The notes beneath the pieces are model-generated. The model was not told the DNA's origin and searched no databases. It saw only the letters and a program-made list of their open reading frames with translations. A stretch of DNA of 64,000 bases from Mytilus trossulus (lineage: Eukaryota), in NCBI RefSeq assembly GCF_036588685.1, contig NC_086380.1:10912001-10976000 (forward strand), given 5' to 3'. This document shows, piece after piece, positions 3,261 through 51,220 of the stretch; the stretch's first letter is position 1, and each line of letters begins with the position of its first letter. Made by a program: the position numbers and the translations under genes.

Positions 3261-3440
3261 AATAGTTATCAAATGTACCAGGATTATAATTTAGAACGCC
3301 AGACGCGCGTTTTGTCTACATAAAACTTATCAGTGACGCTCATATCAAAATATTTATAAAGCAAAACAAGTACTTTTGAAGTTGAAGAGCATTGAGTATC
3401 AACATTCCAAAAAGTTGTGCCAAATACGGCTAAGGTAATC
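3261..3440 (-). mobile_element. Partial hammerhead-repeat (retrozyme-like) copy with a mutated ribozyme core
   Basis: The reverse strand reads agcgtca-CTGATAA-gttttatgtagac-AAAA-cgcgcgTC-tggcgt. It is homologous to 34300-34480, but both CUGAUGA and GAAA are altered. Confidence 0.8.
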
Positions 3441-4186
3441 AATCATTGTTATAGGCCTATATAGTGGGCCTAATCATGATGATGACACTTAAAAGTCGAA
3501 TAATTAAAGATCATTAAGCGCTAAAACGGGCAGCGAAGATGGCCGTGCCGACGGGAAATTAAATGCGCTCAGTATGACAACGAGAAGCCGTATACGGGAT
3601 TCCCACAAAACAATTATCGGGATCCCCGGCTTAAAGGTTAAAAAATCGGATAGTGTTTAAAACTATGTTGAACTATGAAATCAAAATAAATATTGGCAAC
3701 ACTGAATATTGTGAAATTCTCAATCTTTAATTAGCATGTAAAAAAGTTTAGGCAATAGTCACATGAGTTTGACAATAAAATAATGAAAAAGATGAAAAGA
3801 GTGCGGATTTTTTAGAAAAAAATATATGATAGCATGATAAGAAATCATATATCATCAGACATGCTATAAAATTGGCCAGATCACAACTTCGATGATGCTG
3901 TGATTCGTGGATGGAAATTCAAACTTTAAATAAAATTTGTAAAACAAATAATTTAATCACGACAACAATCAGATATTGTTCTGGTAGTGTCGATATTCAA
4001 CCGTTTCCAAGCAAATATCCCGATAATCCCGTTCTCAAATTCCGCTTCTAATTCAATTTGTTTCTTTCACCTGGTAAAATTCGACCGAGACTGTCACGAC
4101 TGCGTCACGATTCGACTCTGTAATTTTATCTCTACCTTATATCTGATACTTTTTTAAAAATAGGGTATTTTTATTGTTGGTAATAA

Positions 4187-6650
4187 ATGTTTAGCAAGGC
4201 ATTTTATCTGTGGAAAAAGGTTGGTTCACCTCCGTCGAAAAATAATATTTACAACTTAAAGAGACTAGAGACGAAACGTTCGGTCAGATTGATACAAAGA
4301 CAACAAACCGCTGACAAAAGAATTGAACTACATGAAGAAATTATGATGGCTTCAGATAGGGACAAGGATCTGTTTTTTTGACTTATTAAAACTCAACGGT
4401 CTTCTTCTTCTCATTTCACACACACCCTTAGAACTGAAGAAAAAGAAGCATCAACTCCAAATGAGATAAATAATGTCTTCAAAGAACACTTTGAAAAATT
4501 AGCCAAAACCAATTCAAATCCTTCCTTCAACACTGGTCATGATAATCTTGTCAAGCTAGACATGGAAACCATTGTCAACATCTGTGAAAACCAAGAAATA
4601 ACAATTCAACCTGTTACTTCAACAGAAATCAGCAAGCGTATTTCGATATTAAAAAGAAAAAAAGGCTGGGGATGTAGAAAGCTTAACTGCAGAACATCTA
4701 ATTTATGGTGGAACAGAGTTGACTGAATTCCTGGTAACCTTAATTAACAATATATTCTATACAAAGCATGTACCTGAAGTCATCAAAAAAGGTCTTCTGA
4801 CCCCTGTCCACAAAAAAGACAAAGACCCTACTATTCCATCAAATTATAGAGGCATCACAGTCAATTCCATCATTTGTAAGATTTTGGAGCTTTGTATTAG
4901 AGCTAGAATTGAGGGCACACTAAATAAACATCAAAACAAGCTTCAGAAAGGTTTCACTAAAGGTGCATCCTCTATTAATATTGCTCTTCTCATCTCTGAA
5001 GCAATTAATGAAGCCAAAGATAAAAACGAGTGTCTTATTCTAATAACTCTGGATGCAGAAAAAGCATTTGACGTGGTAGACCATATACACCTATTTTGGA
5101 AATTATATCATCAAGGAATTAATGGAGCTTCATGGTTACTATTTAAGGAACTATATAATAAGACAACTACACAAGTTAAATCTCAATGATACATCTCGGA
5201 AACATTTGTAAATGAACAGGGAGTCAAACAAGGAGGAATTCTCTCTGCCAATTTTTACAAGGCCTATAATAAAAATATCCTTGATACTCTTGAATCCACA
5301 AACATAGGAATTAAAATTGGAACCAATTATGTGGGTTGCCCAACGTGCGCAGATGACATAATGCTATGTGCTGGCTCAGAACATGATGCCTCAACCCAAC
5401 TCCGCATCATTGAAAACTGTACCAAAAACGATCGGGTAAAGATAAACAGCAAAAAAACTGAAATTCTAATGATTAACAAGAAGAATAAAGATATAAATCT
5501 ACAACTTTTTAATGAAAAAATAGACGAAAAGCAAAACATCAAACATTTAGGAATTGAAAGACAAGAGAAAAAATGTAGAGAAAAGAATCTCTGCTGCAAG
5601 AGCTACAATGTATTCACTATTAGGTGCTGGATTACATGGAATAAATGGTATAAATCCTCTATTATCTTATAAACTATGGCGGACTTACGTTATACCAAGA
5701 ATGCTCTATGGAATTGAAATTCACAACATTACTAAAACTGATATCCAAAATTAGAAGCTTTTCAGAAAAAAACATTTTTAAGCAAATTCTATCTTTACCA
5801 CAAAGAACTGCAGATGCTGCTATCTATATCTTGCTCGGAGCCGAATCCATTGAGCAACTCGTACATAAAGCTTTCATTTCCCTATTTCTAAGAATATCAA
5901 AAGATCCCAATTCAATCGAGTGTAAAATTGGAATTAGACAGCTAGCTACAAAAGATGATAAATCAAATAGCTGGTACATAAATGTGGACAAAACTCTCAA
6001 ATCTTATGATCTTCCATCCGCACATGAGATTATACTAAATCCGGAGAAAAATTGGAAAAGATTGACTCATGATGTCATAGACAAAACCTGGAAAAATAGA
6101 TGGACCGAAACTGCTAGAAGCAAATCAACGCTCAAATATATGGAACTTTAAAAAAAAAAAAAAAAAACTTCTGTTGGAGCAGTGTCAGAGATCATAAAAA
6201 GAGATGTTAGCAAAGGGATAATAAAATCCAGGATACTTACAGGAACTTACAAAACCCAAAGTATTACCAACCGATTTGACGAAACAAAATCTGCAGAATG
6301 CAAATTATGCATGGTAGCCCCTGAAGATTATAAACATTTTCTAATCAAGTGTTAAAGTCTGAATTCTGTGAGAAAAATTCATCACAATAGACTGAAATCC
6401 CTACTAGAGGATAATCAAATCCCCTATTGCAGTATAATTAATTCTGATGAGGATCTTCTCGAAATCTTGGTTGACTGTTCTAGGAACGAACTTATAACTG
6501 TGTCTCAGCAGAGAGATTTAGAACGAATCTGCAAAGACTGGATCTATGCATTGCATGCTAAAAGAACCCAACTTTTGGAAAGCAAATGAACAATCAGTTG
6601 AGTTCTGTGCTTAACTTGCAAGTGGCTGTCAGTCGTGGGAATGTAACATA
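4187..6650 (+). mobile_element. Degraded 5'-truncated LINE ORF2 (RTE-X/Proto2-like RT plus C-terminal CCHC)
   Basis: NYRGITVNSIICKILE, LQKGF, LDAEKAFD, QGVKQGGILS, PTCADD, and CxxC..ED..HFL..C at ~6299-6351. Several stops and frameshifts. Clade is tentative. Confidence 0.85.
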
Positions 6651-6668
6651 TAACAAGTATTATACTAC

Positions 6669-7996: not shown

Positions 7997-8410
7997 TTAT
8001 TTCGCTCTCCTGTCAATTCGTGTAATTTCGCTACCTCCAAAGGTAGACGCTACAACGATGGATGTCTTCAAGAAAGGTACAATTATAGGAATCAGCTAGG
8101 AATTAGAAGATCACCATTGGTATAGTTGTTTAATAGTTGTTGCATTGGGACAAGTGCATGTTTTGGATTAATTCATAATCAGAAATAGTTGGGAAGGGGA
8201 GAAACGTGTTGCTACGTGAACCCGGAAAGGCCGGGACGAATTTAAAAAAAAAATCTAGAGACGATCGTTCTGAGTGTGCCACCTACACATTCAAACGTGT
8301 GCACAAGCACAGTATTCCCTATCTATGTAATTTGTTTTCATAATTATGTGATATAGAGCAAAAAAATTGGTAGCAGTTTTTTGTGTCGTGTTGTTAAGCA
8401 TTTCCAGGGG

Positions 8411-9312
8411 ACCAGTCAACCATGACTACATCCTACATGGTCACATTCTCCAAACTGAAACAGCTACAAAATATTTAGGCATAACCATCCAATCTGATCT
8501 AAAATGGAATAAACACATCAATAATGTAACAGCTAATGCAAACAGACAACTGAATTTTCTCAAACGTAACCTTAAAGTTGCATCACAAAAAATCAAAGAA
8601 AGGGCATACATGTCTTTAGTTAGACCTAAGCTTGAGTACAGTTCTTGCGTCTGGGACCCTCACACAAAAAGTCAAATCAACCAAATTGAGATGGTCCAAC
8701 GCAGAGCTGCTCGCTACACATGTAATAAATATCACAATACCAGCTCTGTCTCAAACATGCTTGATCACCTACAGTGGCCTACATTAGAACTGAGACGTAT
8801 ACAAACAAGACTAGTGGTATTCTATAAGATCATACACCAACACATAGCAATTTACCCTAAAGATCTTCTAGTTAAATCAGACAGTAGAACAAGATATAAA
8901 CCTACAAACCACTTTAAACAAATTCAAACAAATAAAGATTCATACAAGTTTTCATTTTATCCACATACAATAGTACAATGGAACCTACTTCCTACATCAG
9001 CAATCCTTTGTACAACAGTCGACGGCTTCAAAGAGCAGATTTCTATATCTGCTCTTTCACAAATATTCTAAAAAATGCATAACATGTACATAGTTTTAAC
9101 AAGAAATATACATAGGATAACAATCCACAAAAAAAAATTGAAATCACTGTTATATTTTTACTTTAATTATTTTTTCTAAGCACCAATGCAATGTAACGTA
9201 ATATTACTGCAAAATTATTTCTTTTTAATTGTAAATAAGCCACGCATGCAATGGCACGTAATAGTCAAAGTTGTGACTGAGTGCGGAAATATGAAGATAG
9301 ATAGATAGAGAT
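8411..9312 (+). mobile_element. 5'-truncated CR1-group LINE 3' end with (GATA)n tail
   Basis: Open frame to 9071 (KYLGITIQSDLKWNKHI, LVRPKLEYSSCVWDP, FYPHTIVQWN), then a 3' UTR ending in gatagatagataga at ~9296-9312. Inverted relative to the copy at 845-1635. Confidence 0.9.
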
Positions 9313-9447
9313 AATGTTACTTTTCACGGTGTGTTTGATAGGTTTGTTACATTGTAACATTATATAATACACAAGCATAAAGTGGATTAAAATAGCCTCT
9401 CACACTATTAACTGAATTTCAATGATCAATTTACCGTAGTGCTATCA

Positions 9448-9830
9448 TATAAGACTTCGGAGGTTCATATCACTAATATTCAATGTTTTTATATCGATTT
9501 TTTTTTACTATTGTTATTGAACGGTTCATAGTAAAAAATTTAAAAAAAATCCAATAAAATCGTTGAATTTAAATGACATGAACCTCAGAACTTGAACGAC
9601 AGAAGTCTTATATACTGTCCTTTAATATATAAGACCGGAGGTTCATATCATTTACATGATTTACATTTTTTTATCGAATTTTTGTTTACTTTCAATAATG
9701 AACGGTTCAACGGTTCAACATTGGTAGTTAAAAAAAAATCCGATAAAAATTAATGGTTCAACATTGATAGTAAAAAAAAATCCAAAAAAAAAAGTTGAAT
9801 GTAAATGATATGAAGCTCCGAAGCCTTACA
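9448..9830. repeat. Two tandem degenerate foldback units
   Basis: ataagac(tt)cggaggttcatatca at ~9448 and ~9629, with reverse-complement counterparts at ~9573-9612 and ~9803-9829. Confidence 0.55.
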
Positions 9831-10799
9831 TTATTGTACTATTGTTTATTAGTTTTTTTATCCTAACAAAATGTTTTTTTGTGTTGTATATTACAAAAAA
9901 AAGGGGGGTGGTCTTTTAAAAACACCAACATACCTACAATATCTGTTTACAGAATGAGAGAGATATTTTGTATTCTAAAAATAATTTTTCTCACGTGTTT
10001 GTTGGATATATGTTGAAAATACAGACAAATGTTTAGTACGTATACCCATCCCCTCTTTTTCAATTCACTAGTTCAAGATACAGCTCTGAAGAATATGCAA
10101 TAACCTAACATTGATAATTTAGCTAACAATAAATTCAGTACATTTTCTAACAAGCGAAGACCAATGAAAACATTTGATATGATGTGAAAACATGGCCAAT
10201 TAAGTATAGGATCTTGTGGTTTCGTAGACATAAATGATAATTCAATATTTTCGATTCATATTCAAGTATATTTAATAACATGTTTATATTTTGTGACGTA
10301 TCTGATGTATAAATCCATTGCCAGATCCGGGAAAGAGCTCTTAGTTCCGATCCGTTTGTACGGGGAACATGTGGTTGCAACCCCCTCTTTAACTGCCTGT
10401 TCGATTTTTTGTTTGCAGTGTCGAAAAGGGAGAAAGACGGCAGTTTTATCAAGAAGTTATGTGAAAGTTCTGCTATACATCTGACAGTCGGGAATTATTC
10501 TGAAGTATACACATGTCGACCAGAGGCATGGAGAGGGTACCAGATGCTTATCTGAGATTTCAATTTGAACTAAAGAAAGCAATATATAAAGATATGTTGA
10601 AGAAATAATCTATATGAATAAAGTTAGGACACAAAAAGGAACTTCTTTTTTTTATATACAGAATTTGTCAAACGTATCCATAACAGAAGAGATGTGAATG
10701 CATCCTTCATAGCCTTGTAATACTGATGGTAATAATTTATTAAATTTCTGAGATGATATTGCAGTGCCATTGGTTTCCCCTTTCTCCTTCTTCAAAGAA

Positions 10800-21726: not shown

Positions 21727-21728
21727 GA

Positions 21729-22644: not shown

Positions 22645-23520
22645 AAGAAACATCACGAACTCCACTAAGAACCGGGAGTGAAATAAGGTGCTCCAAAAGG
22701 GTAAGCATCGACTGCACCGTATACGTCAGCCGTCGTGTTATTTTTGTATTGTTCAGTTCGGTATTGATGGAATGGTTTATATGACTGAGGAAGAATATCA
22801 GATATGATTTCTGACACACTTTTGTCATAATGACCAATCAGCTCGTGATACCGACCGTAAAATGTCTTCAATGATGAACTTAATTTGATTGGTTCATAGC
22901 CCTGTCTTAGCAACTTTTGAGAAAGCAGTATTCCTAGTTCAACAAAATTAACGTTTGTTGAGCTAGCTTTAGACTAACGTTTTAATTGAAACACATGTAC
23001 TCCATATGCTGGTGCCGCTGGGATGTTGCTGCACAGAAATGGAAAGTTGACTATAGGAAAATTAAAATCTTCACGTTTGTCATAACTTTTGGTATTCAAC
23101 CTACCATCAGTAGTCATTTCGAGAAAAAGGTCAACATATGAAGCAGATTTATCTGTGTCGGTAGTATCTTTAATTTCAAGTTCACTTGGATATGTTAAAT
23201 GTAAGTGATCACTGAACCTATCATTATTAAGAGACAGTACATCACCAATATACCGAAAGGTGAAAAGAAAGTACGAGGCTAGTTTCTTTTCTCCTTTCTG
23301 TACAAGTCTTTGGTAAAATTCTGCTTCATAGCAATATAAACCAAATCTACCAGTAAAGGAGCGCAATTGGTAAATATTGGGTTTCCGATAGTCTATTGGA
23401 AGACCAAGTCTCCAAATTCAACAAATATGTTGTCAATTTAAAAGTCCAGTATGGCAGTGATATCCTCGTCGGTATATTTTTTCCTTGACTCTGTATGATT
23501 TTTCATATTGTTAAATACAA
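22645..23520 (-). mobile_element. Degraded Penelope-like element RT fragment
   Basis: FRYIGDVLSLNN (FRYIDD-type), YPSELEIKDTTD, SASYVDL, YDKREDFNFPIVNFPFLCSNIPAAPAYGV, then LRQGY..KLSSSLKTFYGRYHEL. Frameshifted. Confidence 0.8.
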
Positions 23521-23819: not shown

Positions 23820-24201
23820 AGTCGAAAAATTTAAAGTTTTGTAAACAAGAAATTTATAAAAATGACCACATTATTGATATTCATGTCAACACCGAACTGT
23901 TGACTACTGGGCTGGAGATACCCTCCAAGACGAAACGTCCACCAGCAGTGGCTGCGACCCAGTGGTGTAAATAGTTATCAAAATAGGGTCGCAAGATACC
24001 AAAGGGACAGTCAAACTCATAAATCTAAAATAAACTGACAACGCCATGGCTAAAAAAGAAAAAGACAAACAGAAAACAATAGTACACATGACACAATATC
24101 AAAGGTCAAAGATACCAGGATAATAATTTAGTACGCCAGACACGGTGGCATCGACCCAGTGGTGTAAATAGTTATCAAAAGTACCAGGATAATAATTTAG
24201 T
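23820..24201 (-). mobile_element. Rearranged hammerhead-repeat fragments with a nested non-autonomous repeat (~23985-24097)
   Basis: Matches the reverse complement of ~34075-34270. The ribozyme core is absent (only acgccagac remains). The nested piece matches 60562-60665. Confidence 0.75.
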
Positions 24202-25969
24202 AAATTCTACATCTGTTAAAACCTTACTTAGATCACTTGAAAATCGGTACCATGACACTGGACTTCAACCAAAGTAACTGAATAAGGCGGCCTTGACTTT
24301 CGGTCTTTGCATTTAGTAAGTTTTTAACTAATACATTAGACAATCTTTCAATTTAGTTTCTGTTATTTCTATTGATGCACCATAACCATATGGATCCCAT
24401 TTTGAGAAAGGGATAACAATTTTAGCAATTTCAACGTGATCTCTCTTTGACAGCGTAACATTCTTTTAAAAATTGCTATAACTTGATGAGCCTGTCACTG
24501 TCTTTTTATTTTACTGCGTACTATCTAACCTATAATCAAACACCTATGATAGCTAACAAAAAAGAGGATGAAACAAATCTCTTTCAAATTTCAAAGAACA
24601 AACATTTGGTAATTTTTAATTATGTACATAAATAGTTAATTTGGGAAACCTTGTAACTGTAGATTTGTTTGAACGTTAATCATGTTAATAACACTTTTTT
24701 TTTTATGAAAACCCAGAAGGTTTCATTAACTTACAACGAAATTTATTGCAGAAAGATAGCAGTGTACTGTCCTATAAGTCTTACTGATGATGGACATATA
24801 AGCAATAAATGTACTTATATGCGATAAAACTGGTGGCCAAATGATATCATAATTATACAATTCACAGAACGCTTCGAAAGTCAATAAACCTGTACAATAT
24901 GTCTATTTACTGTTCACTGATATTGATGAATCTTCTAGTTTGTTAATTTAAACATATGTATCAGTCTCAGAAAATTTAATTGTGTTGCTGTTGATAAGGA
25001 TCTTTCCCACTGTCTTTAAGAGACTGCATCTGCTATGCAGTTTGGCTGTCCGTAGATACAGCAAACTTTAAACTGCATACCGTAAAACCAGCTAGACAAC
25101 TTGTTTCTCTTTTGAAGACTTTTAACTCAAAATAGCAACGAAAGAAAAGTTATTTGTGTGAAACATAATTTGTTATTCAATTTAAAGGTTAATATGTATT
25201 TGGCCAAGAGAATGAATAGAAGTTCTAAAAAAGTCATAAATTTCATAATTTCTGTTTTGTGACATTCAACGGGCCAATCAAAATATGCCCAGTGTCCAGA
25301 GAATGATACTCTTCATACAAGTTTGGAATTTCCTGTACTTTAAGTGTACAAATTTATCAGTTTATTTGTCTAAAAGATAGTTTAACAAAATTGACATCTT
25401 CCATTATCTGAATCTAGAAATGTATACCACATATTTATATTCTCTGTCATGCTTATAGTACGGGGCGCCGAACGGGACTTTTTTTGTATTGTACTTGAAA
25501 TTCAATTTTGTACGGACAAAAGTGAGTATATGGCAAACATAGGACATTTTGTGCATTATTGGTTATTTGAAAGACCAATTGTGAAGTCAATCACGTATAT
25601 CCTATAAGTAACATGGGTTTGTTGACATATCAGAAAAGAATAATGTCATATAAGAATAATCACTATAATTGCACAAAATATCATATATTTGACATATACA
25701 TGTAAACTTTTTAAAGATTGCGCATCAACCATATGATATGTCCTTGAATCTGCAAGATCGAGTTTACTACAAACTATGAGAGGCCTTCATACAAAATCGT
25801 GATGGGGAGAAATTCAGTTGCAGATACACTTTTGTTGAGGGTCAATAAAAGTATTTACACTTTGACCAAATGAATATGACAAGTAATGAGTGGAAACCAT
25901 CCATACTTGTTTTAATAGATGTATTGTAGGGACGAAACGTACCCATTCGTGGTTGTCAAAATTTTGCGG

Positions 25970-32471: not shown

Positions 32472-32605
32472 GTTTAATTTATAAATATGACCATATCAAT
32501 GATAATTCATGTCAGCACAGAAGTGTGACTACTGGGCTGGTAATATCCTCGGGGAATCAAAACTCCACCAGCAGTGGCATCGACCCAATGATGGAAAAAA
32601 CTCAT
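32472..32605 (-). mobile_element. Internal fragment of the hammerhead repeat (subfamily 2), no ribozyme
   Basis: Reverse complement of ~48365-48485; duplicated at ~41835-41965. Confidence 0.7.
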
Positions 32606-33245
32606 ACATTTTCTAAATGTTACCAGAAAAGATGTTCTAAACATGCTAAAGGAACGAACCTCCTAGGCGATTTCAGACATTAAAATTGATATTTTTTTTA
32701 ATTTGTTCTTTTTAAATATTTAATTATCTTTTTTGAATTCTTCATTTGTTAGATATATACTAGTCAACAAGAAACGATACGCGACTTTGGAATAACATTT
32801 CGCAAAAAGTATGAAATAAAAACCGAAATGAAATGCACTTTTTTGAAAAGCTCATTTGCAATGTATGCACATATGATAATGAAACCAAAACCTGTCGGGA
32901 AGTTACTAAATTCCATGTAAACTTTACTTTTGCGGATAGTTGGACACACAATTTTTCAAGTACTAAATAAATATTCAAATTTGTTGAAAATATTAAATAT
33001 GCTTATCGAGTTATGTTCATGTGTAACTTAAGGGTTGAAATATTGTTTTTTTAATTTTTTTTGGTTAAAAATATTTTTTGAAATCTCCAAAAATGCAAAA
33101 CTTAAAAAAAAACTGTTTTCGCCTTAAATCATTGCCGAAGATATGAAAACAACACACTGTAAATTTGAAACCTTTCAGATAAGTTTTAAGAATGTGACCA
33201 TTTTTTTTATTTCACTTAATACATACCCTCTATGGTAAATCGTTA

Positions 33246-34050: not shown

Positions 34051-34480
34051 GATGAGTCTTATGTAGACGAAATGTGCGTCTGGCGTATTAAATTATAATC
34101 CTGGTACCTTTAATAACTATTTACACCACTGGGTCGATGCCACTGCTGGTGGACGTTTCGTCCCCGAGGGTATAACCAGCCCAGTAGTCAGCACTTCGGT
34201 GTTGACATGAATATCAATTATATGGTCATTTTTATAAATTTTCTGTTTACAAAACTTTGAATTTTTCGAAAAAACTAAGGATTTTCTTACGCCCAGGAGT
34301 AGATAACCTTAGCCGTATTTGGCACAACTTTTTTGGAATTTTTGGGTCCTCAATGCTCTTCAACTTTGTATTTGTTTGGCTTTTTAACTGTTTTGATCTG
34401 AGCGTCACTGATGAGTCTTATGTAGACGAAACGCGCGTCTGGCGTATTAAATTATAATCCTGGTACCTTTGATAACTATT
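34051..34480 (+). mobile_element. Non-LTR retrozyme-like insertion: 1.2 units of a 359-nt hammerhead repeat
   Basis: 34051-34121 repeats at 34410-34480. Absent from the paralogous site at ~43424. Possible short AAAG target duplication. Confidence 0.9.
34402..34445 (+). ncRNA. Minimal type I hammerhead ribozyme (intact core)
   Basis: gcgtca-CTGATGA-gtct tatgt agac-GAAA-cgcgcg-TC-tggcgt: 6-bp stem I, 4-bp stem II, palindromic stem III. Predicted cleavage after GUC at 34439. Confidence 0.9.
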
Positions 34481-35421: not shown

Positions 35422-35787
35422 TTAGGGAGTATAACCAGTTCTATCTTTTCTTAATGTGTTATTTTACAGTTTTATTTGAGGCAATTTTTACAAGAAATCC
35501 CCCTAATACTTTAGCATCAAATCAAGTTCATTTGCTTTTTTTTGGTAATGTTCGTTTGTGTAAGACAATGTTTTGACGATGCCAATTCACATTTTTTTTA
35601 CATGATATTTATTAATATATTGATACTTTGACTTCTACCTATATAAAATTAGCATTTGGTGTTTACCAATTGTCTGTCTCGATAGGATGTATATAAAGGC
35701 CTAGCATGTGATCTATTTTTCTCTGTTCATTATCATAAATAAAATACTAGCAATGATCTTTTTGTATAATCACTTCAATACCTTTAC

Positions 35788-38425: not shown

Positions 38426-38579
38426 TCTCCGTTTAATATATTGGTGATGATTATAATGAATACAGCAGCTGTTTTGTATTGTTTGATTGCGGTGACGACT
38501 GCCTCCTCTGATTCATATCTTTTATCAGATAATGTTGATGTCGCGTGTCTCCCGTAAATCATATCTTTTATCAGATAAA
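38426..38579 (+). other. Candidate exon, copy 2 (ORF 38447-38557)
   Basis: Same splice signals and 36-codon ORF as 29091-29246, with two amino-acid changes. Confidence 0.4.
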
Positions 38580-41500
38580 GTAAGTTGCGTGATATTTGTC
38601 AGTATTTCTTATTGGAATTTTAAACAAGTCAAGTCAAGGAATACATTGGAAACCTTCCATGACACAATAAGGCTTAATACATAATCTGTTCACATCATAC
38701 AGCCAGTATTTTAAAGGATATTTTCTTTATGGAATTAATGCATAATATTTAAAAGAAAGAATCAAAAATGTATAGACATTTTGCAAAAGAATACTTTGTT
38801 TATCACAACACACATGAAGTTTACCATGGGAACTTTTTGTACTCCCATGGCAATTTCTATTGAAAATGAACTCTTAAGCAGCTGTAGTTACCACAGTGAC
38901 ATTGTGTTCTTTTAATAATTTACCATTGTCCAAAAATATTTTGTTATAAGTCAGTTTTGCCAATTCTGGTATAGCAAATATGGACCGCCTAGTATTTAAA
39001 TTTGTCACATAGTCCTACTAAACTATTGCCGGCCGGCCAAATTAAGAGTTAACTATGTGACCATTAAACCAGAGGTAGAGGTGGGCATTGCCTCTAAAAT
39101 AGCCTTTCAACCCTATGCCCTATACCCTTACAAATTTGTCAGCATAGGGTAGGGGATGGGGGTACCAAGGTATATCACAAAGTCATAATGAACCATTTTA
39201 GTTATTGCCGGCTGACCAATCTAAGAGATTCTCTACGTGGGTCATAACACCAGAGGTAGAGCTATGCATGTCCTTTAAAATATAACATAACATTTATGTT
39301 CGAGATCCGCACGAGTTTGCTGGCAGTAAGTGTGGGGTACCAAATATTTCATATAATTCAACTTTTGCTATTGCTGGCAAAACTAAGAGATTTTGCATGT
39401 TGGCCATTATGGGGGTAGAGGTAGCAGTGGCCTCTATAATTGCCAAGAGTGCGTTTGTCCAAATTTACCATAATAGGGTGTCGGACTGGGGTATCACAAA
39501 GTCAAAATTAACTATTGAAGTTGTCCAAACTAAGAGGTTCTCCATGTCGATCATATTGCCGATGTAATGTAGAAATGGCCTTAAAAAATTGACGATGGCA
39601 CTCTTGCGAGTTATCAGAATGAGGCGGGAGGAGGGTACACCTGTATATTATAAACCAACTTATTTTCGCAGATACTTTATTTCGCGTTCAGCCATTTCTA
39701 ACTCTATTCACGGCGATTTCATTTTGCGATTCTTGAATTAACTGAATATGATAAAATAAAAAAGTTTTACATATTCGCAACGATTTATCTTCGTGTTATT
39801 TTTCTACTCGCGCAGTGGCAAAAATAAAATTGCTTCAGAACAAGATGTAGACATGGCCTCTAAAAGGGTTATCACTTATGCCTTAGACCAGTAAGAGTTT
39901 GTCAATGTAGAGTGTGGGGTTGGATACACCCCGGTAAGTCAAACTTATCTGTTGCCGGATGAATAAACTAAGAGATTATCCACGTAGATCATTATACCAG
40001 GGGTAGAGGTTGATATGGCTTATAAAATGGTCTAGAGCACTTATGCAAAAGATCCTTCTGTAAGCATAGGGTTGGGGTGGGGTATACCAAAGGTAAGTCA
40101 AAAATAATTATTGCTGGCTGGATAAACTACTTTTAGTATGAGATTCTCCACATTAGCCATTATACGTAGAGATAGAGGTAGGCATCGCCTCTTAAATTGT
40201 TTACAACACGTATGCTCTGGGCTCTTACTAGTTTGCTGGTTTTTTTTGGACGGAGGGTATCCAGTATGTCACAAAGTCTAACTTTAATATTGCCGGCTTT
40301 CTAAGCTAAGTGATTTTCTTCACGTGTGCCAAAACATATCAGCAGTATAATTCATATAAAACTGAGTTTTCGTAAAATATAAAAATATACCACGGCTATC
40401 GAGTTATTGTGCCACCTTATTAGTCCCAAAAAATAATATTATTTCTTGTTTATAGCTTCTGTGTCTAATACTATCGTTCCCTTTTATCATTTATCCGAAA
40501 TGTTGTTTACAACTGGAACGGTGAACCATGACGGTTAAAATTCACTGAGGTTGGTATAAGGTTATTTTCGTGCAAAGTGATCGCCGTTTTTTATTTCACG
40601 TTTCACGTGTATTTACTATTCTATTTGACGTTCATTCGTGCAAGACAGATGGCTCGTTCAACGTGTTCTCATTATTTGAGTTTACGTGCATCGTGATTTT
40701 TGAATGCCTATTTTGAGTACTCGGTATTTTTCAAATAAAATTCAAACACTTGGCAGGGATCGTCAAAAAATACTTTTTTAAAAGCCGCAAATCATTTACA
40801 TCATACATGTGTATACTAAATCGGGAATATCAAGTAAAACAGAGAGTTTATATACACAAAAAGACAGGCACTCAGCCACAAAAGGTTAACATCAAAGTCA
40901 TTAATTTTCGTGCAACGTTCATAACAGAAATTATTTCACCTTCAGGGCGAAAGCCTGTCTTATTTTACGTTTTTCCGTTCAAGCACCTTCCCCCTTTTTC
41001 AACCCTTTTTAATGAGTAAAGATCAAAAGATTAGAATTACAAAATGCTAATCTATTATTTACCTTAAATTTGATCACACATTCAACATCCACTAGGTGTC
41101 ACAGTACAATACACATTATATTTACTTCTTTATAAGTTGGAAATGTTTGCTAGACTGAAGTATAAGGACAGAATACAAGCGTGCATGTTTTAATACACTA
41201 TCAACTTGTGATCATGTCAGTTATATATTTTTGTTTGAAGTATTTGTCGGAAAAAAACTAAAAAAGTCATAAATATGTCCTATTGTATGAATTTCTTTCA
41301 TTACTATAATCATATCAGAAGTCCTTAACACACAAATCCTTCAATTTAAATCTAAAAGTTGCACGGCTATCACTTTACTTTCTCAATTAGTTTTTGAATT
41401 AATTTAATAAATTGTAGCCGTTACCAATGGGGTCTTATCGAGGGTTTCCGATCCTGGATCGCGCATAATGTTTTGTCAGATTCCCGTATTCCGCTTACAC

Positions 41501-43770
41501 TTTGTACATAAGCAATTATCATTTTCTTGGTTATTTCCCGGGTCCCCTATACCTCATTTCTTGTTTTCACGACACAATGATTTGACTTTCACGTGTCAAG
41601 CTTACAAACAATCGGCAATATCACGTCACGCTTAGACCCCAATGAGATCCACTACCAAGCGGAAAACGAGATTTATTTTTAATTCTATTTTTAGTAAATA
41701 AATGATTTCACATTTTAGAAAGCAAACTGAAGTTAAATATGAAAGTTTTGATGAAATTTGACTTGACAATTATTTGCTGGTTAATAGCTACACCAAAAGT
41801 CGTCGATGCGCTTAAAATCGCCTTATTTATAGATGGTTTAATTTATAAATATGACCATATCAATGATAATTCATGTCAGCACAGAAGTGTGACTACTGGG
41901 CTGGTAATATCCTCGGGGAATCAAAACTCCACCAGCAGTGGCATCGACCCAATGATGGAAAAAACTCATACATTTTCTAAATGTTACCAGAAAAGATGTT
42001 CTAAACATGCTAAAGGAACGAACCTCCTAGGCGATTTCAGACATTAAAATTGATATTTTTTTTAATTTGTTCTTTTTAAATGTTTAATTATCTTTTTTGA
42101 ATTCTTCATTTGTTAGATATATACTAGTCAACAAGAAACGATACGCGACTTTGGAATAACATTTCGCAAAAAGTATGAAATAAAAACCGAAATGAAATGC
42201 ACTTTTTTGAAAAGCTCATTTGCAATGTATGCACATATGATAATGAAACCAAAACCTGTCGGGAAGTTACTAAATTCCATGTAAACTTTACTTTTGCGGA
42301 TAGTTGGACACACAATTTTTCAAGTACTAAATAAATATTCAAATTTGTTGAAAATATTAAATATGCTTATCGAGTTATGTTCATGTGTAACTTAAGGGTT
42401 GAAATATTGTTTTTTTTAAATTTTTTTTGGTTAAAAATATTTTTTGAAATCTCCAAAAATGCAAAAAATTTAAAAAAAAACTGTTTTCGCCTTAAATCAT
42501 TGCCGAAGATACGAAAACAACACACTGTAAGTTTGAAACCTTTCAGATAAGTTTTAAGAATGGGACCAGTTTTTTTTTTATTTCACTTAATACCTACCCT
42601 CTATGGTAAATCATTTAATGAATGGCTATTATTTATTTTGATTGTATTGAAACATAAAACTAATTTTTGACTCTTCACATTGAATAATCCGCGAAGCGGA
42701 TTATGTAAAATATGATGTCAAAAATTAGTTTTATGGTTCAATAAAATCAAAATAAATCATTGCCATTCATTATAAATAAATTTCTATCAAAAATAAGGCT
42801 CAAAGAACTTTTTATATTATTTATATTAACAATAACAAGCGTACACACTTGTTGGCGTATGAATACTCAACGTCAGAGTGGGAGTGTCGCCATCAAAATT
42901 GACAACATTGAAAATAAAACTAATAATTTTAACCAATCAGAAGACAGTAAAAACACCAAATTTATTTATTTGATAATGTATACATTTTAACGATATCTCG
43001 TTGGGCCGAACTTTGCTTTACAAATAAACGAAGAAACGCTTTAATCTTGAAAAAAAGAATTGACGGCAAACATTGTCTTTATCTTAAATTAAGAGGTTGG
43101 AATCATTAGTTGAAACTTGTTTTTAAAATTGTCGTTTTATGTAAATTTTGTAAAAAAATAGAATTTCGCCAAATGACAGCAAAAAATATCATTTAAGGTG
43201 GATCCCTACAGATATAGCAATGTTTTATTCACCATTGAAATTTCTAAAAATTTGCATATATATATACTATGCACTGGCCTCAATAAAAATTTGAGTTGAA
43301 AATAGTATGTCACCAGACTCCTTTCCATGGTAACGGTCACCAAAGTTGGAACATCACGTGTATGCATAAATACATACTTGATGTGGAAACTCTGTTTTTT
43401 TTTAGCCTTTGAAAGTATTTTGAATGGCCTGTCCTTCATTTCTTACAAAATTATTTTGTAAAATGTAAATAAAACACAAATAATGGCATTTTCATTCATG
43501 TTTATTAATTTAGGCTCCAATTTCAATGCCACCTTCAATATTGGTCCTATAAACGGAAAACTGCATCTTAAATTTGATTTTGTTGACTAGTATACATAAA
43601 AGTACTGGTACCTTATCCCTGCTTCGTAAACATTAGTATATAAATGTATATTCTTCAGATTAAAGTGTTGTTGAATGATAAGTTTCTGCATTTTTATTTT
43701 ATTACTACAAAAGACTCAATCCTTAAGAAATGTTTTTTTTTATATTTGGAAATTTGTAAACCTGACTTAA

Positions 43771-44356
43771 GGTGGTATGGGTGTCTTTCGCCATCTTGAA
43801 TTGTAAAAAACAGAGAATCTAAGGTCCATATTTTCTATCAAGTTAGCAAAATATGATGCAGGAATGCAGAAATTTAATTTGAATTTGAATTTAAAAGAAC
43901 TAATTTATAAGAATATAATATTAATATTTTTACAATTGTAGATTAATTTTGGTTGTTTTTGAATATTTTCAAATTGGCATTGTAAGGGGAGGTAACTCTA
44001 TAACAGTGCATTTTCTGAAGGACTCTACATGAAATTTTCCTATTTTGTCTTTTAGCCAGAAAAAACGTACGGTGACCCTACCTTTTCTTTTGATATTCTC
44101 AAAGCATTGTCTGAAAGCAATCTTTTCCTAATTTATTTTACAATTCTATCATTTTTTTTAGTTTCTATTCACAAAATGGTGTTTTTTCCTGGATAATCCA
44201 TACAAAATTTGTCAAATTGTCACACAACCTGTAGCTTGAGAAAATGCACGGTGACCTATCATTTTTATAATATTTTTGATCATGTATTAACAGATACTAC
44301 ATTTTGACAAGGTATGAACAAATTCTATCATTTTTATTTTAGACTCCCATACCACC
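43771..44356. mobile_element. Kolobok-like MITE, paralogue of 34830-35421
   Basis: Same TIRs; TTAA at 43767-43770 and 44357-44360. Confidence 0.85.
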
Positions 44357-45171
44357 TTAAGGAGTATAACCAGTTCTACCTTTTCTTAATGTGTTATTTT
44401 ACAGTTTTATTTGAGGCAATTTTTACAAGAAATCCCCCTAATACTTTAGCATCAAATCAAGTTCATTTGCTTTTTTTTGTAATGTTCGTTAGTGTAAGAC
44501 AATGTTTTGACGATGCCAATTTACAATTTTTTTACATGATATATATTAATATATTGATACTTTGACTTCTACCTATATGAAATTAGCATTTGGTGTTTAC
44601 CAATTGTCTGTCTCGATAGGATGTATATAAAGGCCTAGTATGTGATCTATTTTTCTCTGTTCATTATCATAAATAAAATACTAGCAATGATCTTTCTGTA
44701 TAATCACTTCAGTACCTTTACTTTTTCTTAACATGCTTATTTTGTCAAATAAATATTTACAATCTATGACATTTATGCGTCTGTGTCAAACTTTGTCCAA
44801 CTAACATAATATTTGTGTTTCCTCACTTATTAAGATGAACAAACAATATCTACTTACTTACTTTATTTCTGTGTCTGTGTTGAAATCGATGCCAATTAAA
44901 TTTTGTACAATTGTATCATTATAAGTTGTTTAACACCAGTCCAGTAAATTTTTAACATCCACTCTAATTAGACATTTAAAAAAAACTAGATAGAAAACAC
45001 CTATGCTTAGGTTGACATGTAACCTTTTGATAAAGAGATGCAATAACAACAAATATTTAAACTAATAATAACATACAACGGGTATTTGTTAAATTCTATA
45101 TACTGTATTTACATATACTAAATTGTAATTGGCTCAATGCTTTGCTTCAAAATAACCCTCTTTTGTCATAG

Positions 45172-45325
45172 AATCCGTTTAATATGTTGGTGATGATTAT
45201 AATGAATACAGCAGCTATTTTGTATTGTTTGATTGCGGTGACGACTGCCTCCTCTGATTCATATCTTTTATCAGATAATGTTGATGTCGCGTGTCTCCTG
45301 TAAATCATATCTTTTATCAGATAAA
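45172..45325 (+). other. Candidate exon, copy 3 (ORF 45193-45303)
   Basis: Near-identical to copy 1, although the downstream flank is visibly more diverged. Confidence 0.4.
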
Positions 45326-47129
45326 GTAAGTTGCGTGATATTTGTCAGTATTTCTTATTGGAATTTTAAACAAGTCAAGTCAAAGAAAATATTTGAAATC
45401 CTTCCATGAAACAATAATGCCTTACATATAATCTGGTCTCCTCGTAAAGCCAGCATTTTTAAAAAAAAATATTTTCTTGATGGAACTAATAAATAATTAT
45501 TAAAAGAAAGAGTAAAAATGTACAGACACGCGAGCTTTAAATTTTCCAATGGGAAATGTTTGTACTCTCATTGCAATTTCTATGGAAAATTAACAGTTAA
45601 TCAGCTGTAGATACCACAGTGACATTTGTTTTTATCAATAATCCATCAATTTCCCAAATATATTTTGTTATTTTGTGAAACAGTTTTGCCGATTCTGGTA
45701 ATCATAGGGTTGCGGAGTAGGGGTCCCATTATATCAAAACGTCAAACTTAATTATTTGAACGAACTTAGAGATTCTCCATATAGGCCATTATAGCAGAGG
45801 CAAAAGTTTGCATGACTTCTAAAATAGCATAAAGCATTTAGGCCTGAGACCCGTACACATTTGTCAGAATAGGTTGTCGGATTGTTGTATCCTGGTATAT
45901 CACACATTCAAAATTTACTATTGCAAGCTGTTGAAACGAAGAGGGTCTCCAAGTGGGTCATTTTGCCAGAGGAAGAAGTTGACATGGCCTCTCATATGGC
46001 CGATAGCACTCATGTCGTAGACCCTTACGAGTTGTCAGAATAAGGAGAGGAGGCGGGTACTCCGGTATATCACAAAGTTTAGATTTATTATTGTCAGCTG
46101 GACAAAGTAAGTAATTTTCCATGTGGCCATAACAACAGATTTAGATGTAGTCATGGCCTCTAAAATGGTCTGTATCAGTTTCGCCTTATACCAGAAAGAA
46201 TTGGTTGTGGCAGGGGAGTTACAAGGAGATATTACAACGTCAAAACCAACTTTTACCGGCTGGCCAAACTAAGAAATTCTCAACGTAGACCATTATGCCA
46301 GGGGTAGAGGTTGACATGGCCTCTATAATGGTCTACATCACTTATGCCAGGGAGCCGTACGAGTTAGTCAGCATAGGGTTGGGGAGGGGGATAACCCGGT
46401 TTATCATGAAGTCAAAAATAATTACCTATTATGTCACAAAGTCAAACTATAACGATGTAGGCTGTCTAAATAGAGGAAGTGATGGGTCAATATTCCTTGT
46501 ATGCCTGAAATTCTGGCATGTGTGAATGTGTAAAACTATGGAGTTAACTAAATTTTCAAAAAAAAATTTATGTGGAAAAAGGGATTTTATTACCCCGAGG
46601 AGACGCTTATTAACGGAAAATGAATATTACTTCGTCCCCAGGAATTTTAACCAAATATGTGAAAATGTTAAACCTTGGAAACGAGCCATCATACATATCC
46701 ATGTTTACGATATGACTAAAGAAATCTGGTAAAAAAGCTACCATTACCGCCTGCATGTGCCCATTTTATAAGCTTTATTTTAGAGGTTGTCATACTGATT
46801 TTTGCATGACTGCATCTTCTACAACAGGAACAATGTGAAAGGGAAAGTAGTTCTCTTTTATAGATACCTAGTTATCACAGCTGGTTCTAGATTAATATTA
46901 TTTGTGAAGATCAGCAATAACTTTCGCTTTTCAAATGTATTACTGGCATACGGCTGGATCACTTCTAATAGGCGCAACCAGAACGTTTGTATAGATCAGA
47001 GGCTGAAAGGCGCATGTCATAGCTTTTTATGGATTAATTCAACATTGTTTAATTGTAATTTAACATGACACACTAAAGACATTGTTATACTACAATGATT
47101 CATGTCTACCCATGCTATAGGGATGTTAC

Positions 47130-47690
47130 AGAGTTGATGGTTCTTTTGCAAAGAACAAACAACTTGAGGATACAAGATACTAATAAAGATGTAATAATAA
47201 TTACAGAATAGAGGAGAGAAAAATTAATATACCCGATATATCACAGGAATTTGACAATGTTGTTCAAGGTATTGGATTTTAGAGAAAATTATTAATGGCA
47301 ATAAATTAAAGGTGAAATTTAATATGAAACAAGAAATTGGTGCAGTTCCTCAGAAACCAAGACCCGTGACTTGAAGAAGGAGGTAAAGCAGATATATTTG
47401 TGGAAGGTCCACTAGGAACAAATGTAAAATGATGCTCAAGTAGGCTCAATGTTGGTTGTTATACCGAAACCCGAATTCATTAAACTACAGCAAGATAAAC
47501 TAGAATCGCACAGGATTAGAGCCTGCGTTGACTTTAGAAAACCAAAAAGGTTTATGGATTAGAACTAAATAACACCAGTCTCAGTTGTTAAAGAATATAT
47601 ACAGGTTTAACAACTGCAGAGTATTTTTTAAGATGAACTTAAGACACGGATATCACAAACTTATGTTAAACCTATAAGCAATATCTACTA
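47130..47690 (+). mobile_element. Highly degraded Gypsy-type pol fragment (start of RT); duplicated at 48970-49530
   Basis: Remnants IRACVDFR and VFFKMNLRHGYHKL; DNA similarity to ~59490-59705. Confidence 0.6.
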
Positions 47691-48091
47691 TCAAACGGGA
47701 AAACAAACAGTCTAATGGATATTTAGGTATTTTATCTTTTTACTAAAAGAGACTCATTCCTGCAGAAATATATAAATCTTAATATTTATAAATTTCTCAA
47801 CCTGACTTAAGGGGTATATCCAGTTCTACTTTTTCTAAATGTGTTATTTTACTGTTTTATTTTAGGAATTTTTTACAAGAAATCCCCTAACTACTGTAGC
47901 ATCAAAGCATGTTCATATGTTATTTTGTTGTAATGTTCGTGTGTGGAAGACGATGTATTGACAATGCCAATTCACAAATTTACTTTATATGAGATTTTTT
48001 AATATAAATTCATTTACAATTGATATTTTGACCTCAACTTATATAAAATAAGGATTAGGTGTTTAACAATTGTCTGTCACAATAAGATGTA

Positions 48092-48558
48092 TATCATTGA
48101 TATTGTTACATTTATAAATTAACTGTTTATTTTGAATTTTTTGAAATACTAAGGCTGTTCTACCTCAGACATAGTTTACCTTAGTTCTATTTGGCAACAC
48201 TTTTAGGAATTTAGGATCTCAATGCTCTTCAACTTCGTACCTAATATGGCTTTTTTTAAAACTTTTTTGGATTCGAGCGTCACTGATGAGTCTTTTGTAG
48301 ACGAAACGCGCGTCTGGCGTATATATAAAAATAAATCCTGGTATCTATGATGAGTTTATTAACCACTGGGTCTATGCTACTGCTGGTGGAGATTTATTTC
48401 CCCGAGGGTATCACAAGCCCAGTAGTCAGCACTTTTTGTGCTGACATGAATTATCATTGATATTGTTATATTCATAAATTAACTGTTACAATTTTTTGAT
48501 TTTTGGAATACTAAGGCGTTTATATAAGATTAAGGCCTGGTATCTATGATGAGTTTAT
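48092..48558 (+). mobile_element. Hammerhead repeat, subfamily 2 (~360-nt unit plus partial second unit); duplicated at 49932-50398
   Basis: tatcattgatattgtta recurs at 48092 and 48452. Inserted into the gatgtatataaaggcc motif that is uninterrupted in the other module copies. Confidence 0.85.
48277..48320 (+). ncRNA. Minimal type I hammerhead ribozyme (intact core)
   Basis: gcgtca-CTGATGA-gtct tttgt agac-GAAA-cgcgcg-TC-tggcgt. Confidence 0.9.
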
Positions 48559-50116
48559 ATACAGGCCTTGTCTGTGATCTGAATTTCTTTGTTAATTACC
48601 ATAAAAAAAATACTTGAAATGGTCTGTCTTTTTCATCACTTCAGTACCTTTACTTTTACTAAAATGCTGAATTTGTCAAATGCACATTTGCAGTCTATGA
48701 CATTTATGCATCAGTATCCAATTTTTTTCAACTGACATTATTTGTGAAGATCAGCAATAACTTTCGCTTTTCAAATGTATTACTGGCATACGGCTGGATC
48801 ACTTCTAATAGGCGCAACCAGAACGTTTGTATAGATCAGAGGCTGAAAGGCGCATGTCATAGCTTTTTATGGATTAATTCAACATTGTTTAATTGTAATT
48901 TAACATGACACACTAAAGACATTGTTATACTACAATGATTCATGTCTACCCATGCTATAGGGATGTTACAGAGTTGATGGTTCTTTTGCAAAGAACAAAC
49001 AACTTGAGGATACAAGATACTAATAAAGATGTAATAATAATTACAGAATAGAGGAGAGAAAAATTAATATACCCGATATATCACAGGAATTTGACAATGT
49101 TGTTCAAGGTATTGGATTTTAGAGAAAATTATTAATGGCAATAAATTAAAGGTGAAATTTAATATGAAACAAGAAATTGGTGCAGTTCCTCAGAAACCAA
49201 GACCCGTGACTTGAAGAAGGAGGTAAAGCAGATATATTTGTGGAAGGTCCACTAGGAACAAATGTAAAATGATGCTCAAGTAGGCTCAATGTTGGTTGTT
49301 ATACCGAAACCCGAATTCATTAAACTACAGCAAGATAAACTAGAATCGCACAGGATTAGAGCCTGCGTTGACTTTAGAAAACCAAAAAGGTTTATGGATT
49401 AGAACTAAATAACACCAGTCTCAGTTGTTAAAGAATATATACAGGTTTAACAACTGCAGAGTATTTTTTAAGATGAACTTAAGACACGGATATCACAAAC
49501 TTATGTTAAACCTATAAGCAATATCTACTATCAAACGGGAAAACAAACAGTCTAATGGATATTTAGGTATTTTATCTTTTTACTAAAAGAGACTCATTCC
49601 TGCAGAAATATATAAATCTTAATATTTATAAATTTCTCAACCTGACTTAAGGGGTATATCCAGTTCTACTTTTTCTAAATGTGTTATTTTACTGTTTTAT
49701 TTTAGGAATTTTTTACAAGAAATCCCCTAACTACTGTAGCATCAAAGCATGTTCATATGTTATTTTGTTGTAATGTTCGTGTGTGGAAGACGATGTATTG
49801 ACAATGCCAATTCACAAATTTACTTTATATGAGATTTTTTAATATAAATTCATTTACAATTGATATTTTGACCTCAACTTATATAAAATAAGGATTAGGT
49901 GTTTAACAATTGTCTGTCACAATAAGATGTATATCATTGATATTGTTACATTTATAAATTAACTGTTTATTTTGAATTTTTTGAAATACTAAGGCTGTTC
50001 TACCTCAGACATAGTTTACCTTAGTTCTATTTGGCAACACTTTTAGGAATTTAGGATCTCAATGCTCTTCAACTTCGTACCTAATATGGCTTTTTTTAAA
50101 ACTTTTTTGGATTCGA

Positions 50117-50160
50117 GCGTCACTGATGAGTCTTTTGTAGACGAAACGCGCGTCTGGCGT
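50117..50160 (+). ncRNA. Minimal type I hammerhead ribozyme (intact core), duplicate of 48277-48320
   Basis: Identical sequence 1840 bp downstream. Confidence 0.9.
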
Positions 50161-50833
50161 ATATATAAAAATAAATCCTGGTATCTATGATGAGTTTATT
50201 AACCACTGGGTCTATGCTACTGCTGGTGGAGATTTATTTCCCCGAGGGTATCACAAGCCCAGTAGTCAGCACTTTTTGTGCTGACATGAATTATCATTGA
50301 TATTGTTATATTCATAAATTAACTGTTACAATTTTTTGATTTTTGGAATACTAAGGCGTTTATATAAGATTAAGGCCTGGTATCTATGATGAGTTTATAT
50401 ACAGGCCTTGTCTGTGATCTGAATTTCTTTGTTAATTACCATAAAAAAAATACTTGAAATGGTCTGTCTTTTTCATCACTTCAGTACCTTTACTTTTACT
50501 AAAATGCTGAATTTGTCAAATGCACATTTGCAGTCTATGACATTTATGCATCAGTATCCAATTTTTTTCAACTGACATTCAGTATATCACTTATAAAGAT
50601 AATACAACAATCTCTTCTTACTTACTTTATTTCTGTGTTTGTGTTGAATTCGATGCCAAGTAAATTCCGTACAATTTAAATCAAATATTGTTCACTTCAA
50701 CTAATCATATTATACAATGGATATTTGTTAATTCTTTAAACTGTATTTACATTTACGGGATTATGACAGTTCTTGTCCATTCGTTTTTGATGTGTTTTGT
50801 ATTTTAATTTTGCCATGTCATTATGGACTTTCC

Positions 50834-51220
50834 GAGGACCCAAAATTCCAAAATTCCAAAAAGTTGTGCCAAATACGGCTAAGGTAATCTACTCCTGGGG
50901 TAAGAAAATCCTTAGTTTTTCGAAAAAATCAAAGTTTTGTAAACAGAAAATTTATAAAAATGACCATATAATTGATATTCATGTCAACACCGAAGTGCTG
51001 ACTACTGGGCTGGTGATACCCTCGGGGACGAAACGTCCATCAGCAGTGGCATCGACCCAGTGGTGTAAATAGTTATCAAAAGTACCAGGATTATAATTTC
51101 ATACGCCAGACGCGCGTTTCGTCTACATAAGACTCATAAGTGACGCTCAGATCAAAATAGTTCAAAAAGCCAAATAAATACAAAGTTTAAGAGCATTGAG
51201 GACCCAAAATTCCAAAAAGT
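50834..51220 (-). mobile_element. Hammerhead repeat, subfamily 1, slightly more than one unit; ribozyme (51103-51146) has CUUAUGA instead of CUGAUGA
   Basis: gaggacccaaaattcca at 50834 and 51198; circularly permuted reverse complement of 34081-34439. Confidence 0.85.

Follow-up and report, generated by a model that had tools for sequence, protein, structure and literature searches.

We analysed a stretch of 64,000 nucleotides (nt) from the mussel Mytilus trossulus (contig NC_086380.1 of assembly GCF_036588685.1, positions 10,912,001 to 10,976,000 of the forward strand), referred to below as the window. The region is AT-rich (GC content 32.6%), holds nested repeats and contains dispersed copies of a short hammerhead-ribozyme repeat, a retrozyme, which is the subject of this study. 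An earlier note made from the sequence alone had listed eight copies, several of them ending at one 3' site. Here we describe these copies, their recurrent 3' end and the hairpin directly after it, which suggests a link with Naiads, a clade of Penelope-like elements (PLEs).

All eight copies exist, and an nhmmer search of the window found none besides them, the pieces at 24106-24202 being assigned to the 23820 locus. Their independence had been overstated: two pairs sit inside duplications, so that the eight copies count as six loci. The copies at 48092 and 49932 share a tandem duplication of 1843 bp with 0 mismatches (46897-50579, period 1840), which is either very recent or an assembly artefact; those at 32472 and 41835 share a 5.7-kb duplication of 97% identity. 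A duplication of about 7 kb (28390-35795 versus 37704-44729, 96-97%), with further copies of about 80% identity at 44420-45976 and from 46605 onward, supplies empty sites for the retrozyme insertions.

Positions in the unit are numbered from the ribozyme, +1 being the first base 3' of the hammerhead cut, which corresponds to 34440 in subfamily A, 48315 and 50155 in subfamily B, and 51108 on the minus strand; B+45 aligns with A+41. The unit measures 359 bp in subfamily A and 360 bp in subfamily B, with GC contents of 0.39 and 0.36, and thereby lies within the 150-450 bp and below the 45-50% GC typical of metazoan non-LTR retrozymes. It carries a type I hammerhead, the core of which is intact in two independent loci and mutated in two (the copies at 3261 and 51108). 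The Rfam model Hammerhead_1 (RF00163, gathering score 34) matches the intact ribozyme at 34402-34445 on the plus strand with 33.0 bits (E 2.4e-4), and its alignment places the predicted cut at 34439/34440. Matches at 48277-48320 and 50117-50160 (32.5 bits, E 2-3e-4) and at 51103-51146 on the minus strand (24.6 bits) also lie below the gathering score. More-than-unit copies occur, with 1.06-1.2 units in the window and 864 nt in a multimer found elsewhere (L002, see below). None of the copies has an open reading frame (ORF) of 120 amino acids (aa) or more, nor the ORF with reverse transcriptase (RT) and GIY-YIG nuclease domains that marks an autonomous PLE.

Subfamily B corresponds to the published 375-nt mussel retrozyme RNA, as matched by eye against the text of a figure in PMC4918200 (Additional file 11). 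Because unit, hammerhead and subfamily B sequence agree with the published mussel retrozyme, the repeat, judged by its sequence, is the known Mytilus non-LTR retrozyme, and the element family is not new. In Mytilus galloprovincialis, about 5000 such ribozymes of two families were reported, the repeats that hold them measuring 350-390 bp and being expressed as circles; self-cleavage and circular RNA are already published for this family, and full-length circles predominate in mussel tissues (PMC7229834, as far as its accessible text goes). Contigs of the RNA run X17 also cover the retrozyme unit, coverage that by itself is not evidence of transcription or of circles.

The division into two subfamilies stands, A and B being 83% identical (over +48..+160), but the variant at 32472/41835 is intermediate, with 87% identity to A and 86% to B. 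The subfamily A copy at 34051..34480 (plus strand) runs from -29 via a full unit to +41, i.e. 1.2 units. The copy at 3261..3440 (minus), also of subfamily A, is 5'-truncated, spans +222 to +41 and has the mutated hammerhead core. The subfamily B body at 48092..48517 (plus) runs from B+138 via a full unit, including the hammerhead at 48277-48320, to B+203 and is joined over a common GGC to a 44-nt tail (48515..48558, plus; B+2 to B+45), which starts at the ribozyme cut and stops at the recurrent 3' end; 49932..50398 (plus) is its identical, non-independent copy. The other subfamily A copies are that at 50834..51218 (minus), from +250 via a full unit to +271, and a composite locus at 23822..24202 (minus), comprising +6..+63, then -5..+33, a 117-bp insert (23983-24099) and +29..+189. 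The intermediate variant at 32474..32609 (minus) extends from B+33 to B+168 and contains the hairpin described below; 41838..41973 (minus) is its non-independent duplicate. The near-full copies, of 430 nt (34051), 426 nt plus the 44-nt tail (48092) and about 385 nt (50834), are all permuted and exceed one unit slightly, as had been noted.

The 5' ends of these copies are scattered, at +222 (3261), +6 (23822), B+33 (32474/41838), -29 (34051), B+138 (48092) and +250 (50834), again in agreement with the first reading. By contrast with this variability, three of the six independent loci stop at a common 3' site about 40 nt after the cut, namely at +41 (3261), +41 (34480) and B+45, equal to A+41 (48558). 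The probability of at least three of six ends falling within 4 nt of each other by chance on a 359-nt circle is 0.009. The shared 5' start at -29 of the 34051 copy and of an outside locus (L006) is not significant (P about 0.10).

Empty paralogous sites show intact target DNA beside the 3' end, and the ends at 34051 and 48092 therefore arose at integration and not through later insertion. At the empty site of the 34051 insertion (within 43395..43430, plus strand; the site itself at 43406-43424), target DNA resumes in the right flank after about 7 ill-fitting bases, and there is no clean target duplication. Four empty sites of the 48092 insertion, about 80% identical (near 28516, 35692, 37843 and 44626), indicate that this insertion was near-blunt, each junction having a TAT overlap. 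Thus, the right flank is pre-insertion DNA at both loci with empty sites. A regular target duplication was seen at neither, up to 5 bp being possible at 48092. The left flank at 34051 resembles the last 15 nt of the element (13/15; empirical P 0.0009-0.0016); a tail-like target was rejected as a general rule, as this flank is the only one of six to resemble the tail (P 0.25-0.85 for the others).

Outside the window, a hammerhead pattern retrieved five metagenome loci (L001-L005), and among genome contigs the long pattern gave no match and a shorter one a single locus (L006). These six loci comprise seven hammerhead-bearing copies, L002 being a multimer that runs off its contig end. Five of six readable 3' ends lie at A+41..+44 (both copies of L003, L004, L005 and L006), with P about 2e-6 under a uniform spread across the first 100 nt for loci picked by their hammerhead; the end in L001 is ambiguous, between B+45 and +54. 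That metagenome contigs and, for L006, a contig of a cyanobacterial metagenome-assembled genome carry retrozyme DNA of the mussel type most likely reflects host contamination. The L006 genome has one retrozyme copy and no Naiad RT, and viral contigs gave no match to the four search patterns or to the Naiad protein.

Further junctions came from public contigs aligned to 49900-51300, taken from four runs of four studies (X1, X5, X13 and X17) among 24 runs; runs X21-X24, with next to no retrozyme words, were left out, and contig depth, which sums cross-mapping contigs, was not used. Loose contig ends were evaluated from 24 listed rows of 4041, with some ends uncounted, and the counts are lower bounds. 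At 50200, the B site, at least 342 (X1), 401 (X5) and 16 (X17) contigs leave the unit into mixed flanks, and at the A site at least 12 (51068) and at least 7 (51066) contigs of X17 do so. Long mixed flanks (median 226-255 nt, agreement 0.39-0.53) characterise five of the 24 rows, all five at the fixed-end site, while the other 19 (agreement 0.56-1.0, medians 13-105 nt) are mostly continuations of the unit. A uniform spread of 3' breakpoints, which the earlier note had set against its own reading, was consequently found neither among the outside ends nor among the listed rows. It should be added that tail-to-tail joints of 50200 to 51067, in which a B 3' end meets an inverted A 3' end, occur in at least 3, 8 and 1 contigs of three runs; a similar joint of 50199 to 51064, considered as a chimera, is probably an effect of a gap in the reference.

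A likely cause of the fixed end, unnoticed before, lies immediately behind it. A long hairpin is formed by the 65 nt directly 3' of +41, with z values of -2.15, -2.15 and -2.17 in three copies; in the 34051 copy it lies at 34125..34188 (plus; +45..+108; -26.9 kcal/mol, z -2.15). The core of this Naiad-type hairpin consists there of ACTGCTGGTGGA at 34142-34153 and TCCCCGAGG at 34161-34169. It occurs seven times in the window versus 0.11 expected, always inside retrozyme copies, and is retained in both subfamilies despite their 83% identity.

The comparison with Naiads was a text search through the Naiad/Chlamys/Hydra supplement of PMC8557442 (584,131 characters), which holds 54 Naiad consensi. 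Of 16 occurrences of GCTGGTGGA in it, 14 lie at a Naiad 5' end or tandem junction and two elsewhere; the exact matches at this boundary are those of Amil, Aacu, Anas, CGi, Sglo, Tgra, Pmar, Mcor, Mgal, Bpla, Skow-1, Pfla-1, Pfla-2 and Cmel. All occurrences of ACTGCTGGTGGA (6/6) and TCCCCGAGG (9/9) are likewise at a 5' end or tandem junction, and they add Olur. The core thus stands at the boundary of 16 of the 54 consensi (14 exact, Olur across a line end and Mphi as a variant), several of which are closely related. The register agrees as well. From the Naiad 3' end to the core, tandem junctions count 19 (Olur), 20 (Tgra) and 22 (Pmar) nt by eye; from the consensus 5' end, the distance, also counted by eye, is 21 (CGi), 23 (Bpla), 24 (Pfla-1) and 20 (Pfla-2) nt, and 22 nt in Mgal after removal of an inserted hairpin. 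The corresponding distance from the retrozyme 3' end is 21 nt in A and 20 nt in the B copy of the window, as computed by script, and 22-23 nt in published B. Furthermore, the sequence of the outer stem varies among Naiads and its pairing, inspected by eye, persists, which points to an RNA structure. No Rfam family matches the hairpin at E up to 1, and it was therefore rejected as a known ribozyme. Taken together, the comparison suggests that the hairpin opening many Naiads sits directly after the fixed retrozyme end and in the same register, a link that is new. The retrozyme accordingly has two features of a Naiad-dependent element: sequence in common with a Naiad end, and a 3' end that is fixed and in register (the register counted by eye) while 5' truncation varies.

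The candidate partner clade is itself represented in the mussel genome, as judged from a broken, 5'-truncated Naiad-type RT remnant with the start of its 3' untranslated region (UTR) at 22645..23506 (minus). Over 186 aa, its RT part (22782-23506) shares 63% identity with protein P0047, in which an N-terminal GIY-YIG domain precedes the RT and a DKA motif is present; both are Naiad marks in the accessible text of PMC8557442. A 3' UTR fragment like that of Naiad_Mgal, without its last 50 nt or so, occupies 50760..50835 (plus; by eye against the supplement), and a second one, with its end intact, lies at approximately 52643-52803 (by eye). The 50834 retrozyme copy abuts the former tail-to-tail, and the loss of the end on the Naiad side too suggests that the off-site retrozyme end there is due to a later deletion. 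One more possible Naiad 3' fragment, at 60549..60718 (minus), belongs to the same family as the insert at 23983-24099; a match of 37 bp at 78% (E 0.004) makes its Naiad identity no more than suggestive. Its last 20 nt agree with those of the retrozyme at 15 of 20 positions, the ends being in register; of about 128,000 positions, none outside the A copies matches this end of the retrozyme better without gaps. The match stays a lead, because no curated Naiad ends like the retrozyme tail (TTTGGTATCTT has 0 matches and TTTGGTATC one, within an ORF). The 23820 locus lies 316 bp from the RT remnant on the same strand; this adjacency was not counted as evidence, because the spacer does not align to the Naiad protein.

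In our view, the retrozyme is probably a non-autonomous element: a Naiad RT would bind the hairpin, start internally just upstream of it and copy round the circle. With somewhat less confidence, we favour the broader proposal that Naiads carry an RNA hairpin conserved across corals, molluscs, hemichordates and fish, which lies 3' of the template and sets the start of the telomerase-like RT, and that the mussel retrozyme took it up and parasitises a PLE devoid of hammerheads. As published for mussel retrozymes, multimer transcripts self-cleave at the hammerhead and are ligated into circles of 350-400 nt, and from +42 the unit carries the hairpin with which many Naiads begin. Within a Naiad transcript made of tandem copies, such a hairpin would lie just 3' of the element end. 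The Naiad protein would bind it and nick AT-rich DNA, and target-primed cDNA synthesis would start internally about 20 nt before the core; the retrozyme would be read likewise, which would fix its 3' end at +41. Synthesis would then cross the ligated cut and stop or jump variably, giving truncated or permuted more-than-unit copies. If the template were a cleaved linear monomer, its end would be reached after about 41-45 nt and the enzyme would jump from there, leaving a short tail such as that at 48515-48558. This tail starts at +2 and is joined over GGC, as expected for run-off and jump; deletion between GGC repeats, of which the unit has four, could mimic it. Another short-tail candidate is a 39-nt piece at 24106-24144. 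Copies ending elsewhere would be later truncations or template switches, and the retrozyme could have originated from a tandem junction of Naiads, where a 3' end meets the 5' hairpin.

The defined priming site and the likeness to a Penelope tail proposed in the earlier note are thereby supported as putative features, and they fit the internal initiation described for a Penelope-like RT, whose genomic ends coincide with start sites (accessible text of PMC11167929). Since Naiads are without hammerheads, the proposed partner differs from that suggested in earlier literature. The relation between retrozyme and Naiad protein is read from sequence, and binding, priming and mobilisation are putative.

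Several observations weigh against this proposal. Three of the six window loci end off-site, at +189 (23822), B+168 (32474/41838) and +271 (50834), where the earlier note had named 50834 as the lone exception, and a visible reason exists for 50834 alone. The outside loci were selected via the hammerhead, which favours ends close by. Among the contig rows listed, the A site appears for X17 only, and X13 shows neither site; moreover, the B copy of the window is without about 3 nt found right after 50200 in published B, a gap that may gather alignment breaks from a few bases further on. The folding z of -2.15 is modest, and two of five hairpin copies are weaker (z -1.57 and 0.16). The 5' end of Naiad_Scon has no exact core, and 37 of the 54 Naiad 5' ends lay outside the viewed set; the Naiad registers were counted by eye, not by computed alignment, with a possible error of 1-2 nt, and it was curators who set the consensus ends. 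No comparable core is visible for the coral and Xenopus retrozymes in the scrambled text of the figure in PMC4918200 (Additional file 11), and the Naiad link may therefore be limited to mussels. Finally, Naiads of this genome were seen as a broken RT remnant and 3' fragments, with no full-length copy.

Among other explanations, we regard as unlikely, yet as the best surviving one, that the hairpin is a relic of an origin from a Naiad tandem junction and that the circles are now copied by another enzyme, such as the RT of hammerhead-bearing Neptune or Poseidon PLEs or that of a long interspersed nuclear element (LINE). The literature favours hammerhead-bearing PLEs as partners (PMC7761336, in its accessible part), Xenopus retrozymes group with PLE pseudo-LTRs (bioRxiv 10.64898/2026.07.22.740005, likewise), and LINE RT remnants are present in the window. 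Against a relic speak the distance from the retrozyme 3' end to the hairpin, which equals that at the Naiad boundary, the retention of the core in two subfamilies only 83% alike, and the lack of a poly(A) or repeat tail and of a clean target duplication at both empty sites.

Similarly unlikely, and if anything a shade less probable, is recognition at the DNA level, with the GIY-YIG nuclease of Naiads cutting the tail or junction, or the motif acting as an internal promoter, so that the clustering of ends would stem from cutting or resolution instead of RNA-guided initiation. The tail itself has been ascribed to nuclease-mediated resolution (accessible text of PMC8557442), and the tail-like empty site of 34051, the possible Naiad fragment inserted at +29..+34 of the 23820 locus, the start of the 32472/41835 pair near the site and the tail-to-tail joints all accord with this. 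However, five of the six left flanks are not tail-like, the outer stem keeps its pairing through sequence change, and none of the long mixed-flank rows among the 24 listed lies 5' of the site. The 34051 target and the 23820 insert do hint at some DNA-level recognition, to the detriment of purely RNA-guided initiation, and such recognition could act alongside it.

It is improbable that the hairpin cuts, or directs the cutting of, RNA at its 5' side, as an undescribed ribozyme or nuclease site substituting for the hammerhead absent from Naiads, with ordinary priming at the resulting RNA 3' end. Ribozymes processing 5' ends are known in other retrotransposons (PMC7761336, accessible part) and the motif is strongly conserved exactly at the Naiad 5' boundary, but there is no Rfam match, full-length circles dominate in mussel tissues, and both genomic copies and the L002 multimer continue through the site. 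Least credible of all is that the clustering arose artificially, from alignment or ascertainment, or at a hot spot of later deletions: the gap in the reference behind 50200, the hammerhead-based choice of outside loci and the mere six window loci would allow it, but the A site yields the same ends without such a gap, the loose contig parts are long and mixed and do not continue the unit, and intact target DNA adjoins the end at empty sites.

The window has a eukaryotic character, to which a Mab-21 family ORF, LINE RT remnants and nested repeats contribute. An intact frame of 794 aa on the minus strand (19417-21801) contains Mab-21 domains (Pfam Mab-21_C, E 1.5e-12), and we take its product to be of the cGAS-like receptor kind. 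Broken remnants of LINE-type RTs lie at 4653-6151, 8352-9071, 17738-19300 and 36183-37706, with Pfam RVT_1 or zf-RVT in four frames. Palindromic or inverted-repeat elements resembling miniature inverted-repeat transposable elements were found at 33246-33400, 42616-42772, 57078-57810 and 9437-9841; the palindrome of the first two gives a chance match to MIR396 in Rfam. At 62809-63595, a unit of 147 bp is repeated in tandem 4-5 times (about 72%).

What is new here is the fixed 3' end and its link with the Naiad hairpin, the element itself being known. Our search of the literature found no report of either, subscription papers, repeat databases and some supplements being beyond its reach; the accessible parts of PMC4209133 and PMC10886601 hold nothing on this end or motif, and the accessible main text of PMC8557442 does not use the word hairpin. 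The enzyme that copies animal retrozymes, and its priming, were called open (PMC7229834; PMC7761336), the 2020 review PMC7761336 stating that metazoan retrozymes have no conserved motif revealing their autonomous partner, and start-site choice by a Penelope-like RT is described for one element (PMC11167929), all as far as these texts are accessible. A 65-nt motif common to a retrozyme and the Naiad clade, at a fixed distance from the ends of both, would make both questions reducible to a binding and start-site assay. If true, the proposal names the partner of an animal retrozyme and gives a portable start signal for Penelope-like RT.

Compared with known systems, the repeat shares with the non-LTR retrozyme of Mytilus galloprovincialis the unit size, type I hammerhead, two families and low GC content, whereas the published accounts, in their accessible parts, describe neither a fixed 3' end nor a partner motif (PMC7229834; PMC4918200). 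Retrozymes of Xenopus are similarly seen as non-autonomous Penelope-like elements sharing sequence with PLE ends; that study is vertebrate-centred and phylogenetic, found Naiads in a coral only and has no junction analysis, and its accessible text does not mention tail, junction, breakpoint, Mytilus, mussel or hairpin (bioRxiv 10.64898/2026.07.22.740005). The Poseidon element PAc of the green anole offers a mechanistic parallel, with an internal RT start downstream of the hammerhead near an AC-rich stem-loop, genomic ends equal to start sites, and AT-rich targets. Its start, however, lies 111-118 nt into the ORF, at two sites and in cis (accessible text of PMC11167929), whereas the mussel retrozyme would be read from a single site located 41-45 nt past the cut, the template being a non-coding circle and the action presumably in trans. 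Naiads, as described in the accessible text of PMC8557442, measure 3.4-4.4 kb, encode GIY-YIG and RT domains and have no canonical hammerhead, while the retrozyme is non-coding and carries one. The two have in common the 5' hairpin core, the boundary register, 5' truncation, partial tandems, possibly a short tail, and the lack of a regular target duplication. If the proposed hairpin-guided start is correct, it would account for the functioning of Naiads that lack a hammerhead, and also for hammerheads being possible passengers, as that paper suggests.

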